Below, piece by piece: positions 1-5,921 of a stretch of DNA of 5,921 nt. A program made the translations under genes and the position numbers. This DNA comes from a virus. Below the pieces are notes generated by a model. It saw nothing but the letters and a program-made list of their open reading frames with translations. It did not search any database and had not been told where the DNA came from. The stretch's first letter is position 1; every line of letters begins with the position of its first letter. Where the stretch lies: positions 1 to 5,921 of the IMG/VR virus record IMGVR_UViG_3300045988_005608; one strand, 5' to 3'.

Positions 1-99
1 AACGAAGACAAAAAGGAGTAAACCATAATGCACAAAACATGGAATGTACGTGACCAGACCAAAGAAGCAAATTGGAACCATGGACGAAACAAAAAAAAG
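1..99. repeat. Terminal direct repeat, copy A. Identical to 5823..5921, so this is the assembly overlap of a circular genome with a 5,822-nt unit.
   Basis: Base-by-base comparison: 1..99 (aacgaagacaaaaaggagtaaacc...acaaaaaaaag) matches 5823..5921 exactly, right up to the window edge. Confidence 0.95.
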
Positions 100-135
100 G
101 AAAGAAAGGTACACAACAATGGCACGACATCGTAA
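28..135 (+). CDS. Hypothetical 35-aa basic peptide (MHKTWNVRDQTKEANWNHGRNKKKERKVHNNGTTS). It is too short to appear in the supplied ORF track.
   Basis: Hand translation. ATG at 28 lies 9 nt after AGGAG (14..18), the best SD/start pairing in this stretch. Stop TAA at 133..135. No recognisable motif, and it overlaps the start of the packaging-protein ORF. Confidence 0.25.
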   Translation: MHKTWNVRDQTKEANWNHGRNKKKERKVHNNGTTS

Positions 136-241
136 AGTAATGAGCGGCGCAAAAGACCGCCGCATGTTTAACGTAACCGCACGAAAAACCAAAAGCATCA
201 ACCTCAGCCAGAAGCCTATGCGCGGTGGCATCCGGCTGTAA
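119..241 (+). CDS. Small Arg/Lys-rich DNA-binding/packaging protein (phiX174 J-like, gokushovirus ORF8-like), 40 aa.
   Basis: MARHRKVMSGAKDRRMFNVTARKTKSINLSQKPMRGGIRL is highly basic with the C-terminal RGGIRL ending I recall from small basic proteins of gokushoviruses. ATG at 119 lies 9 nt after AAAGG (105..109). The ORF track's longer version from ATG 44 has no SD, so 119 is preferred, but 44 is not excluded. Confidence 0.7.
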   Translation: MARHRKVMSGAKDRRMFNVTARKTKSINLSQKPMRGGIRL

Positions 242-261
242 AAAAAAGGAGAGTAAGTATC

Positions 262-501
262 ATGAAGCATGAATATTTTGGCCTGTGGGACAGTGTAGCA
301 AAGTGCTACGCATGGGTAGGCGAGAGCAAGAACAATGCAACCTTTGCACGTATGTGCAACGTAATGGCAAAGGATGAAAAAACGTTTGTCGGACAGGCAC
401 CCGGAGACTATACCGGCTTCAAACTGGCAGTATTTGACGATGAAACCGGTGAGTTTACCAACGACAAGGAAAAGGTATGGGAGGGCAAGCCGCATGAATA
501 A
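262..501 (+). CDS. Conserved small non-structural protein of gokushoviruses (VP5/ORF5-like), 79 aa.
   Basis: AAGGAG (246..251) lies 10 nt before the ATG. The pattern Y..WD.VA..Y.......N.A.FAR.........P.DY..F.L..FDDETGEF matches my memory of the small ORF5-type protein found upstream of VP3 in Chlamydia-phage-like and gut microviruses. Its position directly upstream of VP3 also fits. Confidence 0.75.
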   Translation: MKHEYFGLWDSVAKCYAWVGESKNNATFARMCNVMAKDEKTFVGQAPGDYTGFKLAVFDDETGEFTNDKEKVWEGKPHE

Positions 502-886
502 ACGATACGAAGAAGGGCGAGAGCCCTTCTTTTCTGAATCAGGCGAAAAACTCCGAAAACAATACGTCTGGACAAAGGACGAAAAAGGGCAAGAAGTGCT
601 GCAAGAAACTACACCAATCGACATCCAACAGGAGATTGAAAGCTATGCGGATGAATGTGATATCAAAAGCATTGTCCGAAAAGCAAGTTTTGACCCGCAG
701 TTTCTGAAAAGCCTGTCAGAAGGAGCACTGAACGGAACAGAAGTGGATATCACCGAATTTCCGCAGAACATTCACGAGTATCACCGCATGATTGCAACAG
801 CACAGGCAAACGCCATGAAACTAGAAGAGCTGCGAAAAGTAGCAGCACAAGAAAATAAAGCAGAACCTAAAGCAGAGGAGGAATAA
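494..886 (+). CDS. VP3: Internal scaffolding protein VP3, 130 aa.
   Basis: ATG at 494 lies 8 nt after GGGAGGG (479..485) and overlaps the stop of the previous ORF (ATGAATAA). The gene sits immediately upstream of the capsid gene. It is acidic and helical with a Lys/Glu-rich tail (AAQENKAEPKAEEE). The 374..493 extension in the ORF track overlaps the VP5-like ORF out of frame and lacks an SD. Confidence 0.8.
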   Translation: MNKRYEEGREPFFSESGEKLRKQYVWTKDEKGQEVLQETTPIDIQQEIESYADECDIKSIVRKASFDPQFLKSLSEGALNGTEVDITEFPQNIHEYHRMIATAQANAMKLEELRKVAAQENKAEPKAEEE

Positions 887-888
887 AA

Positions 889-2592
889 GTGAATCGAAAC
901 AATGAACAGCACTTTAACCAGATTCCGGAAATGAAAGCGAGTCGAACACGTTTTAACCGTGACCAGACGATTTTAACAACGTTCGATTCCGGCAAGCTGA
1001 TTCCGTTCTATGTTGACGAGGTATTACCAGGCGATACCTTCAACGTGGATACGTCAGCTATCATCCGCATGACCACGCCGAAATACCCGGTGATGGACGA
1101 TGCATTTATTGACTTCTACTACTTCTATTGTCCAAACCGCATACTGTGGAATCACTTTAAGTATTTCATGGGAGAAATCGATGACAAACCCTGGATGCCA
1201 ACAGATGAACACAAAGTACCACAAATCAAAATCAACGGAAGCGAAAGCGCGCCAAAACCTCTAGAAAAAAGCATCCTAGACTACATGGGAGTACCGACAA
1301 AAATTAAAGCACCGTTCTCAGTCAATGCACTTCCCATCAGAGCATACGTCAAGATTTGGAACGAGTTTTTCCGAGACGAGAACGTTGGAAACGCGGCAGT
1401 ATGGTCAGACGACGACGACGATGTAACATATACACAAAGCTACAACGACGGCAGCGGTCAAAAAGATGAACTGGAAAAAATCTTACAGGAAGCAAGAACT
1501 GGTGCGCTCTGTCTTCCTGTAAACAAATTCCACGACTACTTTACCAGCTGTCTACCTTATCCTCAGCGCGGACCGGCGGTAACACTGCCGATGGAAGGTA
1601 ACGCAACCGTATATTATGGAAACAGCCGAACAGGAAAACCGTACACAATAGCAAACCTAGTTGATGATTTGGAATGGACTAACCAAGTCAACAACACGGC
1701 AAGCACAACAAGCAACATTTGGAGAGCGGGAGGGGAACTTACGAGCTTAGATACTCCAGCAAGAGCAATCGTAACGGCAAAAACTCCTGAAGTAGGTGGT
1801 ATTAACCTAGTAGCAGACCTAAGCACAGTAACTGCAGCAACCGTCAACGAATTACGAAAAGTCGTAGCAGTGCAGCAGTACTACGAAGCACTGGCAAGAG
1901 GTGGCAGCAGATACCGCGAACAGGTACAGGCACTGTGGAATGTGGTAATCTCTGATAAAACCGTACAGGTGCCGGAATATCTTGGCGGTGGTAGATACCA
2001 TGTGAACATCAACCAAATCGTCCAGACCAGCGGACAGCAGACAAACAACGACACGCCAATCGGCGAAACAGGCGCAATGTCGGTAACGCCAATCAACGAA
2101 AGCAGCTTCACAAAATCTTTTGAGGAGCATGGATTCGTCATCGGCGTATGTTGTGTACGACACAATAGAAGCTATCAGCAAGGACTTGAACGCTTCTGGA
2201 GCAGAATCGACAGGCTTGACTACTATGTGCCACAGTTCGCAAACATAGGCGAACAACCTGTCAAAAAGAAAGAAATCATGTTAACCGGCGATGCAACGGA
2301 TGAGGAGACATTCGGCTACCAGGAAGCATGGGCGGACTACAGAATGAAGCCTAACCGGGTATCCGGCCTCATGAGAAGCAACGCAACGGGATCGCTGGAC
2401 TTCTGGCACTATGCTGACAACTATTCAAACGTGCCGACGCTATCGCAAGAGTGGATGAACGAAGGAAAAGAAGAGATTGCGCGCACGGTCATCGTGCAAG
2501 ATGAGCCACAGTTCTTCGGAGCCATCCGAGTAGCAAACAAAACCACAAGAAGGATGCCATTGTACAGTGTACCGGGCTTATACAAATTGTAA
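889..2592 (+). CDS. VP1: Major capsid protein VP1 (Microviridae F-type jelly-roll capsid), 567 aa, GTG start.
   Basis: GTG at 889 lies 7 nt after GAGGAGG (875..881). N-terminal HFNQIPE..SRTRFNR..TTFDSGKLIPFYVDEVLPGDTF and internal TVNELR..V..QQYYEALARGGSRYREQ are hallmark motifs of microvirus major capsid proteins. Size is typical of gokushovirus VP1. Confidence 0.97.
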   Translation: MNRNNEQHFNQIPEMKASRTRFNRDQTILTTFDSGKLIPFYVDEVLPGDTFNVDTSAIIRMTTPKYPVMDDAFIDFYYFYCPNRILWNHFKYFMGEIDDKPWMPTDEHKVPQIKINGSESAPKPLEKSILDYMGVPTKIKAPFSVNALPIRAYVKIWNEFFRDENVGNAAVWSDDDDDVTYTQSYNDGSGQKDELEKILQEARTGALCLPVNKFHDYFTSCLPYPQRGPAVTLPMEGNATVYYGNSRTGKPYTIANLVDDLEWTNQVNNTASTTSNIWRAGGELTSLDTPARAIVTAKTPEVGGINLVADLSTVTAATVNELRKVVAVQQYYEALARGGSRYREQVQALWNVVISDKTVQVPEYLGGGRYHVNINQIVQTSGQQTNNDTPIGETGAMSVTPINESSFTKSFEEHGFVIGVCCVRHNRSYQQGLERFWSRIDRLDYYVPQFANIGEQPVKKKEIMLTGDATDEETFGYQEAWADYRMKPNRVSGLMRSNATGSLDFWHYADNYSNVPTLSQEWMNEGKEEIARTVIVQDEPQFFGAIRVANKTTRRMPLYSVPGLYKL

Positions 2593-2602
2593 GAAAGGAG
2601 GA

Positions 2603-2628
2603 AGCCCGGAGAAATCCGGGCTATTTTT
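2603..2628 (+). terminator. Intrinsic-terminator-like hairpin between VP1 and VP2: 8-bp stem AGCCCGGA/TCCGGGCT, GAAA tetraloop, then ATTTTT.
   Basis: Pairs 2603:2622 through 2610:2615, loop 2611..2614, T-run 2624..2628. It starts 11 nt after the VP1 stop. Probably a partial terminator or attenuator, because VP2 and VP4 lie downstream with no promoter of their own. Confidence 0.6.
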
Positions 2629-2630
2629 AA

Positions 2631-3467
2631 ATGAGTGTATTATCAGGACTCTTAACAGGACTAAACGTAGCGGGAAACGTAGCGAATACGGTTGGAACAA
2701 TTGCCGGCGCGGCAAAAGACGTTGCTGGAATATTCGGCGGATGGGGTCAAACCGGTAACAGCCAAAGTAGCGGAGGCAGCACAAGCGAAGGCGGCGGCCA
2801 CTCAGAAAGCGGAAGTCACTCGGGCACGAACGTACAACAGGTAAACGACTGGCTAAAACAGGCATACACATACCAAGGGCAAGAAGCTGCCATGCAAGGT
2901 AAATACAACAGTCAAAGCATGTTAAAGCAGATGGGTTACAACACCTTACAAGCAATCATGCAAGGCGTATATAACCACATTGAAAACAGCGTAGCAATGA
3001 ACTACAACAGTGCAGAAGCACTAGCCAACCGCGAATGGCAAGAGCACATGAGCAATACAGCATATCAAAGAGCCGTTGAAGATATGAAAAAAGCTGGACT
3101 GAATCCAATTCTAGCCTTTGCAAACGGTGGAGCAAGCACGCCGGGCGGTAGCGCGGGAACAATCAGCGGTGCAAGTATGGGACTAGCAAGCAGCAGCGCA
3201 CTAGGAGTAAGCCGAAGCGGTGGATTTGTACCGAACGCATACGAAAGCAATAGCTGGAGTAAAAGCGACTGGTACAACGCAGCACAAAGTTGGCAGCAGA
3301 TGCTCAGTAGTACGCAAATGACGCCTTACGGATTAGCGAAGGCTTTAACAAACGTTGGAAACGATACCGGAAAAGCAATAGAAAAAGCAACAAAATCGCA
3401 AAGCAAAACGCACAAGAGCAAAAGCGGAGCAGAACATGGCGGCGGCGGAGGTGAAATCAAAAAATGA
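2631..3467 (+). CDS. VP2: Minor capsid / DNA pilot protein VP2, 278 aa.
   Basis: The motif REWQEHMSNTAYQRAVEDMKKAGLNPILAF is the conserved core I recognise from gokushovirus VP2 proteins. Other features: Gly-rich hydrophobic N-terminus, Gly/Ser low-complexity linker, and position between VP1 and VP4. An in-frame TAA at 2628..2630 fixes 2631 as the first possible start. Confidence 0.9.
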   Translation: MSVLSGLLTGLNVAGNVANTVGTIAGAAKDVAGIFGGWGQTGNSQSSGGSTSEGGGHSESGSHSGTNVQQVNDWLKQAYTYQGQEAAMQGKYNSQSMLKQMGYNTLQAIMQGVYNHIENSVAMNYNSAEALANREWQEHMSNTAYQRAVEDMKKAGLNPILAFANGGASTPGGSAGTISGASMGLASSSALGVSRSGGFVPNAYESNSWSKSDWYNAAQSWQQMLSSTQMTPYGLAKALTNVGNDTGKAIEKATKSQSKTHKSKSGAEHGGGGGEIKK

Positions 3468-4483
3468 GTTGTTACAAGCCATTAATAAGGCTGTACAACC
3501 CGAACGATAAAAGCATCAGCGGGAGGGTATATTCACTCTCCCGCTTTTCTCAGTTAGCGGGAAAGCAGCTCAAATATGAAGACCTGATGTACAGAAAAGA
3601 TGTCATGTTGATACCATGCGGACAGTGCATCGGGTGCAGAATCAGACAAAGAGAGGACTGGACAACACGAATAGAATTAGAAGCACGAGACTATCCAAGA
3701 GAAGAAATTTGGTTTATCACATTAACTTATGACGATAATCATGTACCGGGCATGATAGTAAACACAGGCGAAATCATGCGAAAAGTACAATACGTCTGGA
3801 AACCGGGAGAGAAGCGCCCAGAAAGCGTCCAAACTTTGCTATATACTGACATTCAAAAGTTCTTAAAACGCCTCAGAAAGGCTTATAGGGGCAAATTACG
3901 CTATTTCGTAGCGGGAGAATACGGAGAACAGACGGCAAGACCACACTTCCATATGATTCTATATGGATGGAGACCAACAGACCTAGAGCACCTATACAAG
4001 ATACAGCACAACGGATATTTCACAAGTAAATGGTTAGCAAACCTGTGGGGCATGGGTCAAATACAGATAGCGCAAGCAGTACCTGAAACATATAGATATG
4101 TTGCGGGATACGTTACAAAAAAAATGTACGAAATTGACGGTCAAAAAGCAAACGCATACTACGAACTAGGGCAGCAAAAACCTTTTGCATGTATGAGCCT
4201 TAAACCGGGCTTAGGAGACCACTATTACCAAGAACACAAAGAAGAAATCTGGAGACAAGGCTACATCCAATGCACAAACGGCAAACACGCACAAATTCCA
4301 CGCTATTATGAAAAAATGATGGAAACTGAAAACCCACAAAGATTGTGGAGAATTAAACAGAACAGACAAGCAGCAGCCATAGCGGAGAACCGACTTAAGT
4401 ATGAAAATGCAGACTTTGCAGAGCAATGTAAGACAAAAGAAAGGGTGATAAAGAAGCAAATGAAGAAGAGAGGGACACTTTAA
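3464..4483 (+). CDS. VP4: Rolling-circle replication initiation protein VP4 (phiX174 A-like HUH endonuclease), 339 aa.
   Basis: ATGA start/stop overlap with VP2. GGAGGTG (3447..3453) lies upstream. Motif I FITLTY (3713..3730), HUH motif HFH (3944..3952) and the paired-tyrosine motif YRYVAGYVTKK (4091..4123) are present, plus a CGQCIGCR Cys cluster. Confidence 0.95.
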   Translation: MSCYKPLIRLYNPNDKSISGRVYSLSRFSQLAGKQLKYEDLMYRKDVMLIPCGQCIGCRIRQREDWTTRIELEARDYPREEIWFITLTYDDNHVPGMIVNTGEIMRKVQYVWKPGEKRPESVQTLLYTDIQKFLKRLRKAYRGKLRYFVAGEYGEQTARPHFHMILYGWRPTDLEHLYKIQHNGYFTSKWLANLWGMGQIQIAQAVPETYRYVAGYVTKKMYEIDGQKANAYYELGQQKPFACMSLKPGLGDHYYQEHKEEIWRQGYIQCTNGKHAQIPRYYEKMMETENPQRLWRIKQNRQAAAIAENRLKYENADFAEQCKTKERVIKKQMKKRGTL

Positions 4484-4501
4484 CAGTGTCATGGTGTCAC
4501 C

Positions 4502-4535
4502 TAGCCCAGTACCTATCAAGTAAGGTACTGGGCTA
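4502..4535 (+). other. Perfect 13-bp stem-loop (TAGCCCAGTACCT / AGGTACTGGGCTA, 8-nt loop ATCAAGTA) 19 nt after the VP4 stop. Could be a terminator or an ssDNA origin/priming structure.
   Basis: All 13 pairs from 4502:4535 to 4514:4523 are Watson-Crick. It is followed by TTGTCGTTT. A smaller 6-bp hairpin GACACT/AGTGTC (4474..4490) encloses the VP4 stop codon. Confidence 0.6.
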
Positions 4536-4594
4536 TTGTCGTTTAAAGGCTCCATGTATCAGCCTATTCAGTCTATCAAATAGCTATACTTTAT

Positions 4595-4639
4595 CGCGCG
4601 TGCGCACGCGCGCGAAGCGCGCACGCGCGCACGCGCGCA
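4595..4639. repeat. G/C-only alternating purine-pyrimidine block: ACGCGCGC x3 plus an 18-nt perfect palindrome.
   Basis: CGCGCGTGCGCACGCGCG (4595..4612) equals its own reverse complement. ACGCGCGC occurs at 4606, 4623 and 4631. Strict Pu/Py alternation holds for 4595..4614 and 4617..4639. GCGCGTGCGC (4596..4605) is complementary to both 4619..4628 and 4627..4636. Confidence 0.9.
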
Positions 4640-4653
4640 GCTCTTCAGCGCTA

Positions 4654-4683
4654 TTGTTCGCAAGCTCACAAGCGCTGTATAAT
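4654..4683 (+). promoter_or_regulatory. Weak candidate sigma70-type promoter (TTGTTC, 18-nt spacer, TATAAT).
   Basis: Perfect -10 TATAAT at 4678..4683. The -35 is poor, matching only TTG at 4654..4656. No credible ORF follows within 390 nt. Confidence 0.3.
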
Positions 4684-4777
4684 ATATAACTTGTTGTAGG
4701 AGTAGTAGTAGAGGCTGTGGAAAAGTTGATAAGTGCTAAAATTTAACGTTAAGACGTAAATAAAAAGCAAAAAACAA

Positions 4778-4816
4778 TGTTGAAAGTTTTGTTGAAAACT
4801 TGTTGAATTGTTGAAA
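4778..4816 (+). repeat. Iteron cluster A: four direct copies of TGTTGAA(A/T).
   Basis: Copies start at 4778, 4790, 4801 (TGTTGAAT) and 4809, giving spacings of 12, 11 and 8 nt. Confidence 0.9.
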
Positions 4817-4817
4817 G

Positions 4818-4834
4818 TTCGTCAAAATGACGAA
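4818..4834. repeat. Short inverted repeat/hairpin TTCGTCA-AAA-TGACGAA between the two iteron clusters.
   Basis: 4818..4824 is the reverse complement of 4828..4834, with a 3-nt loop. Confidence 0.7.
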
Positions 4835-4852
4835 AACCTTTGTGCAACTTTA

Positions 4853-4889
4853 TGTTGAAAACCTGTTGAAAGTGTTGAAAGTGTTGAAA
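4853..4889 (+). repeat. Iteron cluster B: four direct copies of TGTTGAAA.
   Basis: Copies start at 4853, 4864, 4873 and 4882, giving spacings of 11, 9 and 9 nt. Orientation is the same as cluster A. Confidence 0.9.
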
Positions 4890-4993
4890 ACGCGCACAGC
4901 GCTAACAAGGAATGGATTCAGCCGAATTCCGCTGCGCTCCATACGGCAAGGCGCTAAAGCGCCGTTCAAAACAAAGGAGCAAAACCGAGTTGC

Positions 4994-5003
4994 TGATATA
5001 TCA
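4994..5003. promoter_or_regulatory. 10-nt perfect AT-rich palindrome TGATATATCA about 20 nt upstream of the P1 -35 box. Possible operator.
   Basis: The sequence is self-complementary. It is flanked by GTTG (4989..4992), whose complement CAAC (5002..5005) overlaps the last 2 nt of the palindrome. Confidence 0.3.
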
Positions 5004-5023
5004 ACTAAAATTTCAAAAAAGGC

Positions 5024-5052
5024 TTGACTTTTTTTCGAGAATATGATAGAAT
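5024..5052 (+). promoter_or_regulatory. Promoter P1: TTGACT, 17-nt spacer, TAGAAT with an extended -10 TG and an A-rich upstream tract.
   Basis: -35 at 5024..5029, TG at 5044..5045, -10 at 5047..5052. The upstream AAAATTTCAAAAAA resembles an UP element. It sits about 28 nt before the ATG at 5080. Confidence 0.75.
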
Positions 5053-5079
5053 ATAATCACAGAAAGGAAGGTGCTCAAA

Positions 5080-5262
5080 ATGATGCACAAATACGAGTTA
5101 AGAAGCTGGAACAATGACGACACGATGACCACGGTATTAAAAATCAATGATACACCCAAAAACGCAAAAAAGCGGGCAAGAGAATACGCAAACGATCACA
5201 AGGGAATCTATTCCTTGTGCAGAGTCGAAGAAGTAAAAATATACTCCACTGAAAAAGAATAA
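5080..5262 (+). CDS. Hypothetical 60-aa hydrophilic protein of unknown function.
   Basis: ATG at 5080 lies 6 nt after the long SD AAGGAAGGTG (5064..5073). The track's GTG at 5071 lies inside that SD and is unlikely. The gene has its own promoter (P1) and its own terminator. No motif recognised and no TM segment. Confidence 0.7.
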   Translation: MMHKYELRSWNNDDTMTTVLKINDTPKNAKKRAREYANDHKGIYSLCRVEEVKIYSTEKE

Positions 5263-5267
5263 AAAGC

Positions 5268-5297
5268 AAACTCCCGGTTGACACCCGGGAGTTTTTA
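5268..5297 (+). terminator. Rho-independent terminator: 10-bp stem AAACTCCCGG/CCGGGAGTTT, 7-nt loop, T-run.
   Basis: Pairs 5268:5294 through 5277:5285, loop 5278..5284, Ts at 5292..5296. It starts 6 nt after the ORF stop at 5260..5262. Confidence 0.85.
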
Positions 5298-5306
5298 TTA
5301 TATAAT
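5278..5306 (+). promoter_or_regulatory. Promoter P2: perfect consensus TTGACA, 17-nt spacer, TATAAT.
   Basis: TTGACA at 5278..5283, spacer 5284..5300 (17 nt), TATAAT at 5301..5306. It lies about 20 nt upstream of the peptidase ATG (5327), which has the SD AAGGGGGG (5313..5320). Confidence 0.8.
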
Positions 5307-5326
5307 ACAGACAAGGGGGGATAAAC

Positions 5327-5719
5327 ATGATTAAAAGCTATATCATGGACACAGATGGAAACGTAAATCTGGCAAAACACTTCAAAGTAAAAGAATTTGC
5401 TTGCAAAGACGGCAGCCAAGTAGTATTCATAGACGACTACCTATACACCATTCTGGATATCTTACGAAAAAAGCTAGGAAAGCCGGTGATCATCAACAGC
5501 GGATACAGGACACCAGAGTGGAACAAAAAATGCGGTGGAGCAAAATACAGCTATCACATGCGCGGTATGGCAGCAGACATCCGAGTCAATGGCATGAGTG
5601 CAAAAGAGCTTGCCAACAAACTGAATGAAATCGTCCCGGATGAATGCGGCATTATCGTATACAACACCTGGGTGCACTTTGATGTGCGAAGCGGGAAAAA
5701 ATACAGAAAGGGGGTATAA
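5327..5719 (+). CDS. Zinc D,D- or L,D-peptidase of the M15 family (Peptidase_M15A / M15_3-like). Putative endolysin, 130 aa.
   Basis: FKVKEFACKDG...PVIINSGYRTPEWNKKCGGAKYSYHMRGMAADI...WVHFDV matches the SGYR..N/..S.H..G.A.D/..H.D zinc-ligand architecture of M15A cell-wall peptidases. No N-terminal hydrophobic signal is present. Confidence 0.9.
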   Translation: MIKSYIMDTDGNVNLAKHFKVKEFACKDGSQVVFIDDYLYTILDILRKKLGKPVIINSGYRTPEWNKKCGGAKYSYHMRGMAADIRVNGMSAKELANKLNEIVPDECGIIVYNTWVHFDVRSGKKYRKGV

Positions 5720-5720
5720 A

Positions 5721-5843
5721 ATGGCACTGATTTCCATTAAGGACGTCAAGCAAGCAATCCGCATTATGATGCAGATTCTCGAAAAACTCGACGAGATCTA
5801 TCATGCGCTGCACGATAGCATCAACGAAGACAAAAAGGAGTAA
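5721..5843 (+). CDS. Hypothetical 40-aa amphipathic helical peptide (MALISIKDVKQAIRIMMQILEKLDEIYHALHDSINEDKKE). It crosses into the terminal repeat, and its tail is duplicated at 1..21.
   Basis: ATG at 5721 lies 1 nt after the peptidase stop and 6 nt after AAAGGGGG (5707..5714). The track's longer version from 5625 overlaps the peptidase gene out of frame and is unlikely. Confidence 0.5.
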   Translation: MALISIKDVKQAIRIMMQILEKLDEIYHALHDSINEDKKE

Positions 5844-5921
5844 ACCATAATGCACAAAACATGGAATGTACGTGACCAGACCAAAGAAGCAAATTGGAAC
5901 CATGGACGAAACAAAAAAAAG
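5823..5921. repeat. Terminal direct repeat, copy B (identical to 1..99).
   Basis: Exact 99/99 identity with the window start. Confidence 0.95.

Follow-up and report, generated by a model that had tools for sequence, protein, structure and literature searches.

A block of 45 nucleotides (nt) that is almost entirely G and C, with purines and pyrimidines in alternation, lies in the non-coding region of the gokushovirus genome IMGVR_UViG_3300045988_005608 (IMG/VR; positions 1 to 5,921, the stretch analyzed here and called the window). The block, at 4595-4639, is a dyad: two alternating CG/CA arms with a short centre between them. It recurs at the same place in many related genomes, its arms change together, and the mispairs they tolerate are nearly all of one kind. 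A hairpin formed by a single strand is the best explanation of the block, because it accounts for the conserved centre, the equal arms, the compensatory changes between them, and the wobble confined to one side. The interpretation put forward here, tentatively, is that the block serves the origin region as a structure-specific signal, a single-strand hairpin, probably in the initiation of the complementary strand or as an accessory to it.

The window holds a complete genome. Positions 1-99 recur exactly at 5823-5921, and this terminal redundancy of 99 nt in a window of 5921 nt means that the assembly of a circular genome, 5822 nt long, ran on beyond its starting point. The + strand carries all of the genes and is called here the coding strand. 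There is a single long non-coding region, 4484-5070 (587 nt), and the GC block lies inside it.

Composition, conservation and pairing of the arms

The sequence of the block, CGCGCGTGCGCACGCGCGCGAAGCGCGCACGCGCGCACGCGCGCA, has 38 G or C in 45 positions within a genome of moderate composition (44.8% G+C), just as a first-pass annotation, made from the letters of the window, had described it. The binomial probability of at least 38 is 4.6e-8 for a stretch of that length and about 3e-4 genome-wide, and the next G+C-richest stretch of 45 nt has 32. The same annotation had pointed to two alternating runs, of 20 nt (4595-4614) and 23 nt (4617-4639). They are the longest in the window, the next being 14 nt; in 500 dinucleotide shuffles, which reuse the block's own CG dinucleotides, the longest run averaged 13.4 nt, with a maximum of 23. 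The left arm (20 nt, 4595-4614) includes the perfect 18-nt palindrome claimed at 4595-4612. The right arm (22 nt, 4618-4639) begins with ACGCGCAC, the best-conserved part of the block according to the conservation line of the alignment. The centre, 4615-4617, is a loop of AAG in the minimum-energy register and GAA in an alternative register, and the motif GCGAAGC (4612-4618, + strand) would form a mini-hairpin at the apex of the window's copy. Further details of the annotation were borne out as well: ACGCGCGC occurs three times (at 4606, 4623 and 4631), the 10-mer GCGCGTGCGC at 4596 has exact complements at 4619 and 4627 (and a further one at 4602), and 10 of the 33 GCGC sites of the window fall within the block.

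Several mutually exclusive, stable hairpins had been predicted from these repeats, and folding as single-stranded DNA (ssDNA) agrees. The stretch 4560-4680, proposed for the purpose, folds at -35.4 kcal/mol (z = -2.76), and the block itself at -26.4 kcal/mol on the + strand, where other registers come within 1-3 kcal/mol of the optimum. On the complement, the block folds at -31.1 kcal/mol. Over a wider stretch, 4484-4720, the ssDNA folds into three hairpins (z = -6.5).

Conservation was assessed among GenBank relatives and in a set of 120 IMG/VR genomes, retrieved by a scan with the most conserved motif of the non-coding region. That region matches 65 phage records. The earlier suggestion to search related microviruses, at the corresponding position, for GC-only blocks proved strongly productive: an equivalent block, between the same landmarks, is present in all 16 of the GenBank relatives fetched, which come from human, pig and monkey faeces and one human blood sample, from China, France and Spain, and from several series of records. 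The block is also present in 84-89 of the 120 IMG/VR genomes, and with the GenBank relatives there are 74 distinct variants. The closest relatives (83-87% identity) all have it, and it is kept in genomes whose replication protein, VP4 (Rep), is only 55-57% identical to that of the window.

The left arm averages 20.1 nt (71 variants) and the right arm 19.8 nt. At the centre, the alternation is broken by A/T-rich sequence in 71 of the 74 variants, though the sequence itself varies (GAA, AAA, GAAA, GTAG, GATA, GATAG, TAAT, GTAATC, TTT, and others); one variant, L012, has 44 nt of unbroken alternation and no centre. The arms together amount to 2931 nt, including 573 A or T, all of them in phase, and there are about four true breaks of phase. 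At the four-fold degenerate sites of VP4, transitions exceed transversions by 2.1:1, while the arms are nearly without transversions, a depletion of at least 15-fold relative to those sites. In several lineages, the stem extends into flanks that do not alternate, as in L206 (ACAGGCATGC...GCATGCCTGT) and L001 (TATAGC...GCTATA).

Pairing between the arms was tested with 72 unique variants, set in the window's own register of 20 pairs (1437 cells), against 500 shuffles of the columns and against partners slid by 2. The fraction of paired cells is 78.6%, compared with 71.9 +/- 0.4% in the shuffles and 67-68% with slid partners. The excess is larger for cells changed on both sides (130, compared with 43.9 +/- 4.8 and 17-29), and the covariation score is 0.236, compared with 0.120 and 0.09-0.10. 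None of the 500 shuffles attained the observed values for pairing or for double changes. The trend is illustrated by one pair of positions, with 37 variants reading C-G and 25 reading T-A. A hand-picked set of 22 variants gave 91% paired cells and compensatory change in 11 of 13 pairs, but the conclusions on pairing rest on the unselected set of 72. Since the arms are alternating and rich in G and C, almost any register pairs, and the hairpin would therefore survive both slippage and point changes.

The strand that folds

The mispairs are not evenly divided. Read on the coding strand, the 1437 cells comprise 1124 Watson-Crick pairs, 295 A.C, 5 G.T and 13 others, where base frequencies and exchange counts at four-fold sites would lead one to expect, under neutrality, about 2.4-2.8 A.C per G.T. 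When each of the 14 clusters of variants is represented only once, there are 67 A.C and no G.T. Each A.C on the coding strand is a G.T on its complement, so the fold is 98.7% paired on the non-coding strand, as opposed to 78.6% on the coding strand. The complementary strand is also the one that folds more stably in 72 of the 74 variants. Of 84 genomes, 83 have the A-rich strand of the block on the coding side, irrespective of how the neighbouring origin module (described below) is oriented. Cruciforms and Z-DNA are symmetric between the strands, and so the asymmetry indicates a single folded strand of non-coding polarity, whether DNA or RNA. The pattern suggests that the strand that folds productively is the complement of the coding strand.

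The first-pass annotation had taken the block for a candidate minus-strand priming or packaging signal, a stable hairpin on the packaged ssDNA. The stable hairpins and the covariation of the arms agree with that idea, but the fold that appears to be selected lies on the strand opposite the one assumed to be packaged.

The conservation, architecture, covariation, strand asymmetry and context of the block can be brought together in a model. In vivo, the block would work once a single strand had folded into a hairpin of about 20 base pairs (bp), with alternating CG/CA arms and a short A/T-rich loop. The hairpin, staying free of single-strand-binding protein, would be a landmark for host proteins that prime synthesis or load the replisome, as the displaced or injected single strand becomes duplex. 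In this role, it would act beside two neighbours, the nick-site hairpin and an unwinding module with DnaA boxes and DnaA trios.

A hairpin of this kind has precedents among ssDNA phages. In the small ones, such hairpins are best known for keeping single-strand-binding protein off a site and for steering host priming or primosome assembly to it. The start of the complementary strand of phiX174 is marked by a stable hairpin that is read by host replication-restart proteins (PMC9865509). That site (the PriA n' site) is likewise a hairpin on an ssDNA genome where the complementary strand begins; it differs in being specific and imperfect, neither G/C-only nor alternating, and the block, for its part, is dispensable in part of its clade. 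The priming sites of G4, St-1 and alpha3 contain extraordinarily stable GCGNNAGC mini-hairpins, and mini-hairpins of the GCGNAGC class bind single-strand-binding protein poorly (PMC13037366). The three origins resemble the block in their very stable hairpins, their location in the main non-coding region, and their cluster of three hairpins, and GCGAAGC, at the apex of the copy in the window, is of one class (GCGNAGC/GCGNNAGC) with GCGAAAGC in G4 and GCGTTAGC in St-1 and alpha3. Here too there are differences: there is no similarity of sequence, the hairpins of G4 type do not have 20-bp arms of alternating CG/CA, and the fold of the block is apparently selected on the non-coding strand, its function being deduced from sequence.

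CRESS-DNA viruses, geminiviruses and plasmids of the pT181 type also have a G/C-rich stem-loop near the origin of a replicon with an HUH rolling-circle Rep. Their loops carry the conserved nick site, however, whereas the loop of the block is variable and has no nick motif; the conserved phiX-like nick motifs of the window are found elsewhere, in a loop at 4514-4524 (- strand) and at 4688-4696 (+ strand). The block would be an origin-region hairpin, as other ssDNA phages have, but with an unusual design, alternating G/C and indifferent to register, and with an unexpected strand preference.

Several considerations weigh against a hairpin signal for complementary-strand initiation. An origin of that sort should be a stable hairpin in a non-coding region, should show compensatory change among relatives, and should be present in all members of the group. 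The block has the first two properties and lacks the third: 31 of the 120 genomes have the same origin module and no block (about one-quarter to one-third of the clade), and it is absent as well from the cultured gokushoviruses Chp2, SpV4 and phiMH2K. One genome, L103, is without it although its VP4 is 91% identical and 77% of the genome matches at about 79% nucleotide identity. Since so large a part of the clade does without the block, it cannot be the sole essential minus-origin; it must be dispensable or replaceable, and at most accessory. A genome-wide search for the strongest hairpin in the genomes without the block usually returned the nick-motif hairpin and found no substitute G/C hairpin. 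A comparison of the presence of the block with that of every phage open reading frame (ORF) gave associations at the level of clades only and no cognate protein.

There are also reservations about the fold. The stability of the hairpin follows largely from its composition: untrimmed blocks are modestly more stable than shuffles that preserve the alternation (summed energy of -1336 vs -1174 +/- 19 kcal/mol), but trimmed G/C cores are no stabler than such shuffles (mean z = -0.24), and the energies of cognate and non-cognate pairs of arms do not differ significantly (-16.8 vs -17.4 kcal/mol, p = 0.25). Both controls on covariation, the shuffled and the slid, leave shared ancestry in. RNAalifold, given the full, gappy alignment of 72 sequences, returned no consensus structure, and the covariation is seen only when a fixed register is imposed. 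The scarcity of transversions is predicted less directly by a hairpin alone than by a requirement for alternation. The mini-hairpin apex, considered as a general key feature, was rejected, as it occurs in only 12 of the 74 variants and on the coding strand. Finally, the non-coding strand of a classical positive-sense microvirus is never long single-stranded. The strand result requires an unproven corollary, either packaging of the negative-sense strand or an antisense RNA.

The first of these corollaries can be made explicit, and it is the simplest reading if the fold matters on ssDNA of non-coding polarity. It is conceivable, if unlikely, that the clade of gut gokushoviruses displaces and packages the strand complementary to its mRNA, making its members negative-sense microviruses, and that the GC block is the complementary-strand origin of that strand. 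The notion stems from two independent observations, the asymmetry of the wobble and the orientation of the nick motif in the hairpin loop as compared with cultured gokushoviruses. That motif lies on the non-coding strand in 110 of 113 genomes of the clade, whereas Chp2, SpV4 and phiMH2K have TACTTG(A/T)T in a hairpin loop on the coding strand. In a phage of this sort, the nick motif CTTG^ATAG, similar to those of Chp2 and phiX174, would be exposed in the conserved hairpin loop of the non-coding strand, and the GC block would be a nearly perfect, G.T-tolerant hairpin on the packaged strand. Replication of the duplex form would be aided by an oriC-like module of DnaA boxes and DnaA trios, captured and usable in either orientation.

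In the coding regions, the coding strand has an extreme excess of A over T (overall, 36% A vs 19% T; at the four-fold sites of VP1, 42% A vs 13% T), and the skew does not change with the orientation of the origin module. It was considered as an indicator of the packaged strand and dropped as not diagnostic: phiMH2K is likewise A-rich, and Chp2 and SpV4 are T-rich.

Other explanations of the block

Perhaps the block acts in the duplex. As Z-DNA (or a cruciform) in the supercoiled replicative form (RF), it might be a sink or sensor of supercoiling, or a hard G/C boundary beside the AT-rich unwinding element, tuning the opening of the origin by DnaA and nicking by Rep. This is rather unlikely, though much about the block invites it. 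Alternation of purines and pyrimidines, in CG-rich runs of 20 and 23 nt, is its best-conserved property, kept across all 74 variants, and the depletion of transversions (again, at least 15-fold relative to four-fold sites) is what a need for alternation would produce. A rough two-state estimate of the B-to-Z transition, made with parameters from the B-Z and strand-separation literature, places the flip at a superhelical density (sigma) of about -0.036 for each arm and about -0.039 for the whole block, while the adjacent AT-rich stretch would melt spontaneously only at about -0.095; by the same estimate, a 5.8-kb circle at -0.06 would be relaxed by the flip to -0.044. The block abuts that AT-rich stretch in many genomes (0-13 nt), and a G/C-rich flank reportedly boosts the supercoil-driven melting of neighbouring AT-rich DNA (PMC8235120).

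The proneness to Z-DNA that the first-pass annotation had noted is thus physically reasonable and fits the near-absence of transversions, but it leaves the conserved centre, the covariation and the strand asymmetry unexplained. No strand-symmetric property of a duplex can yield 295 A.C against 5 G.T, and Z-DNA has no need of the central break seen in 71 of 74 variants or of compensatory changes linking the arms. The position of the block is not what one would expect either, as its distance from the AT-rich stretch varies from 0 to more than 200 nt and its side varies as well, the block lying at the far end when the module is inverted. Tracts of (CG)n/(CA)n prone to Z-DNA occur in supercoiled plasmids and in the phiX174 RF, where they are not known to be selected or functional; to the same class of sequence, the block adds maintained alternation, a dyad, covariation and strand asymmetry. 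We know of no established role of Z-DNA in bacterial or phage replication. Folding as a single strand and a Z-DNA role in the duplex are not mutually exclusive.

It is also possible, but improbable, that the duplex is read by a host or phage protein and that the arms are tandem or dyad repeats of a binding site (CGCGCAC and the like), similar to the Rep-binding iterons near rolling-circle origins. The arms are perfect direct repeats in several lineages (L014 and L129 have CGCGCGCACATGCGCACGCG twice, with a period of 24, and L032 has a similar pair), the direct similarity between arms exceeds that of shuffles (mean z = 1.2, with z > 2 in 30% of the variants), and ACGCGCAC, with which the right arm starts, shows good conservation. 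Oriented repeats would account for the fact that A, not T, interrupts both arms. The sequence, however, is free to vary within the limits of alternation and pairing, with no fixed motif or spacing in the 74 variants. No phage gene cleanly co-occurs with the block, and compensatory T-A pairs are not expected of a repeat read as duplex.

There is a similarly small chance that the block has no function at all and is the by-product of a slippage-prone CG/CA microsatellite or a self-propagating palindrome, in a non-coding region that tolerates it. This would agree with its patchy distribution, with the varying number of CG units among the close relatives L044, L045 and L047, with its varying position within the region, with its duplication in L115, and with genomes of the L019 type that show only CGC in its place. 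In bacteria, long G/C palindromes and (CG)n tracts are prone to deletion. Yet the element keeps its length of about 43 nt and its two arms, each of about 20 nt, even where the identity of Rep has fallen to 55%, and the covariation, the exclusion of transversions and the one-sided wobble indicate purifying selection.

A hairpin in RNA of antisense polarity, where the A.C mispairs become G.U, would meet the strand asymmetry directly, as such asymmetry is the classic signature by which a structured RNA is assigned to a strand and 98.7% of the cells form standard pairs on the non-coding strand. The RNA might be a primer, a regulatory antisense transcript, or a transcript protected at its end by the stem. 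The explanation is slightly more doubtful than the two before it: no convincing promoter on the minus strand leads into the block (the sole match to the consensus is weak and 400 nt away), no run of U follows the stem on either strand, and an Rfam scan of the whole window matched nothing at the block, yielding only a sub-threshold caiA match at 5260-5329.

It is very improbable that the block is an intrinsic terminator of the VP4 (Rep) mRNA or a stabilizer of its 3' end. The block does lie about 110 nt downstream of the VP4 stop, but there is no run of T after it in the window (where the flank is AGCTCTTC) or in its relatives (ATATAA and the like), the stem would have about 20% C.A mismatches in the sense RNA, a terminator scan did not report the block, a better candidate with a T-rich tail lies upstream at 4502-4535, and in one sub-clade the block precedes VP4, following VP2. 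As for an artefact of assembly, chimerism or amplification, GC-only palindromes are hard to sequence, but nothing was found in support of it, and the possibility raised by the first-pass annotation is effectively refuted by dozens of independent assemblies, differing in study, host and country, that have homologous blocks in the homologous position, with lineage-specific sequences and compensatory changes.

The surrounding origin region

On the + strand, the elements follow one another in the order GGTGTCACC, 13-bp hairpin, GC block, third hairpin, AT-rich stretch, TAACTTGTTG, TAG GAG TAG TAG TAG, AGGC, TGTGGAAAA, and GTTGAAA array. The 13-bp hairpin (4502-4535, - strand; preceded by GGTGTCACC at 4493-4501) is nearly invariant in the clade. 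Its loop reads TTACTTGATAG on the non-coding strand (also given as CTTGATAG and TTACTTGATAGG) and matches the nick core of phiX174, ACTTG^ATA (the phiX174 origin being CAACTTG^ATATTAATAAC). On the + strand, the same hairpin resembles a terminator of the Rep gene, with its T-rich tail. The third hairpin, CAGCGCT...AGCGCTG, is at 4646-4677, and its 3' arm doubles as one of the short inverted repeats on either side of the invertible module described below.

The AT-rich stretch, TATAATATATAA followed by TAACTTGTTG (4677-4696, + strand), is likely an unwinding element and contains a second candidate for a nick motif, similar to those of phiX174 and phiMH2K. This motif, at 4688-4696 (+ strand), has no hairpin; ACTTGTTGTA at 4689-4698 matches the hairpin loop of phiMH2K in 10 of 10 positions, and the coding strand around it (4685-4700) reads ATAACTTGTTGTAGG. 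The hairpin-less copy is on the coding strand in 94 of the 120 genomes and on the other strand in 26. Across 106 unique sequences, TAACTTGTTGTAG is invariant.

Next to this stretch is a set of elements that resembles a bacterial origin; the first-pass annotation of the block makes no mention of it, although no other part of the surroundings tells as much. At 4697-4711 (+ strand) is TAG GAG TAG TAG TAG, which looks like a series of DnaA trios, reading 3'-GAT-5' away from the adjacent box. A G/C-rich spacer of 4 bp (4712-4715; GCCT on the - strand) separates it from two sequences on the - strand that are similar to DnaA boxes: TTTTCCACA (4716-4724), with one mismatch to the DnaA box TTATCCACA, and TTATCAACT (4724-4732), with two. 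Beyond these, at 4778-4890, is an array of GTTGAAA(A/G), that is, TTTTCAACA or CTTTCAACA on the - strand, weakly box-like 9-mers in a single orientation; at least nine repeats of the TTTTCAACA type lie on the one strand. The minus strand thus reads TTTTCCACA-GCCT-CTA CTA CTA CTC CTA-CAACAAGTT-ATATATTATA, which is box, spacer, trios and AT-rich DNA, the order and orientation of the basal unwinding system of bacterial origins (PMC8287927, PMC8235120, PMC6669920). That system is recognized by a box with at most two mismatches, a spacer of 0-16 bp (typically about 4 bp and G/C-rich), at least three NAN trios on the correct strand, and AT-rich DNA (PMC8287927), and the sequence of the module at 4677-4732 matches on every count.

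The resemblance is maintained beyond the window. The module is conserved in the 120 IMG/VR genomes and in 45 gut gokushoviruses from GenBank, the spacer is 4 nt long in 61 of the 68 unique sequences with a recognizable box, and a perfect TGTGGATAA is found in several relatives. In the next 305 nt, a genome has on average 5.04 box-like 9-mers on one strand and 0.57 on the other, where 0.60 would be expected. The window itself has 28 box-like matches, compared with 16.5 +/- 4.2 in shuffles, five of them clustered at 4716-4890 on one strand. The likeness to oriC is that of the block's neighbour, in order, orientation and the spacer of about 4 bp, and not of the block itself. The idea that the block is a G/C cluster of the oriC type was rejected, since that cluster is the 4-bp spacer at 4712-4715; in oriC it is 4-5 bp long and lies between the box and the trios, whereas the 45-nt block is beyond the AT-rich stretch. 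The module differs from oriC, too, in that it is borne by a rolling-circle phage and is known from sequence alone. A search of the literature (with most subscription journals outside its coverage) turned up no description of the block, of sequences of Z-DNA type, or of DnaA boxes or trios in microviruses.

In 26 of the 120 genomes (for example L005, L063 and L048), the module, about 4678-4895 and including TAACTTGTTGTAG, is inverted relative to the genes. It is flanked in the window by short inverted repeats, AGCGCTGT (4671-4678) and ACAGCGCT (4896-4903). In these genomes, neither the GC block nor the nick-motif hairpin is inverted with it. The block is usually 0-50 nt from the AT-rich end of the module, abutting it directly (0-13 nt) in many genomes, but the distance can exceed 200 nt, and in the inverted genomes the block is at the far end of the module, by the box array.

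Other rearrangements were seen. In a sub-clade represented by L048, L073, L111 and L110, the non-coding region lies between VP2 and VP4, directly upstream of the start of VP4, and consists of the block, the inverted module and the nick-motif hairpin. L115 (IMG/VR) has, upstream of the origin motif, a duplication of the GC block and the TAACTTGTTGTAG...TAG motif as a single unit. L146 (IMG/VR; 8781 nt, with VP4 94% identical) has foreign DNA in place of the block, about 3 kb in excess of a normal genome, and the insert appears to hold a gene on the opposite strand. Nine genomes (L003, L004, L007, L008, L014, L015, L204, L206 and L207) have other, unrelated G/C-rich hairpins, such as GGGGGGTAGACC...GGTCTACCCCCC, CCCCTTCCCC...GGGGCGGGGG and GCGCCCCAGCTCATGGGGCTGTCGC, inserted between the conserved hairpin and the origin motif. 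It seems that the non-coding region tends to gather stable folds. After the repeat array, at 4890-5000, is a conserved segment somewhat richer in G and C, with small palindromes (GGCGCTAAAGCGCC at 4948-4961), and two short ORFs, 4827-5027 and 4912-5046, recur in 58 related genomes; the segment may code for protein or form a structure.

The genes outside this region are on the + strand: the major capsid protein VP1 (889-2592), VP2 (2631-3467), the Rep protein VP4 (3464-4483), and a peptidase M15 (5327-5719). The closest genomes in GenBank are those of gut gokushoviruses of human, pig and monkey (77-85% identity). Two sites resemble promoters: TTGACT-17-TAGAAT with a TG extension, at 5024-5052, and a perfect TTGACA-17-TATAAT at 5268-5306, which overlaps a 10-bp hairpin (5268-5294) with the look of a terminator on either strand. 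A consensus of sigma-70 form, together with strong ribosome sites of the AGGAGG type, argues against a host of the Bacteroides type. A search for the host by way of the conserved origin motif, through 185,579 species genomes, gave two matches, neither of which identifies a host. One was put down to chance, as it lies within a 130-kb contig that has no similarity to the window, and the other is a 5.7-kb phage contig binned with a Bacteroides metagenome-assembled genome.

In the mammalian gut, gokushoviruses rank with the commonest DNA viruses, and to our knowledge their replication origins have never been mapped. The block and its neighbours amount to a map of a control region that can be tested: a nick hairpin, a GC hairpin, an AT-rich stretch, trio-like repeats and a box-like array. 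If the block is a priming signal, then its design is an unusual one, with alternating G/C arms whose pairing works in any register and hence withstands slippage and mutation. The maintained alternation would in addition be among the few cases in bacterial viruses of apparent selection on the potential to form Z-DNA. Packaging of the negative-sense strand, if true, would be a major departure from the textbook account of Microviridae. More generally, one-sided wobble may be used as an indicator, read from sequence only, of which strand exists as ssDNA, and here it raises the possibility that part of Microviridae is not positive-sense.

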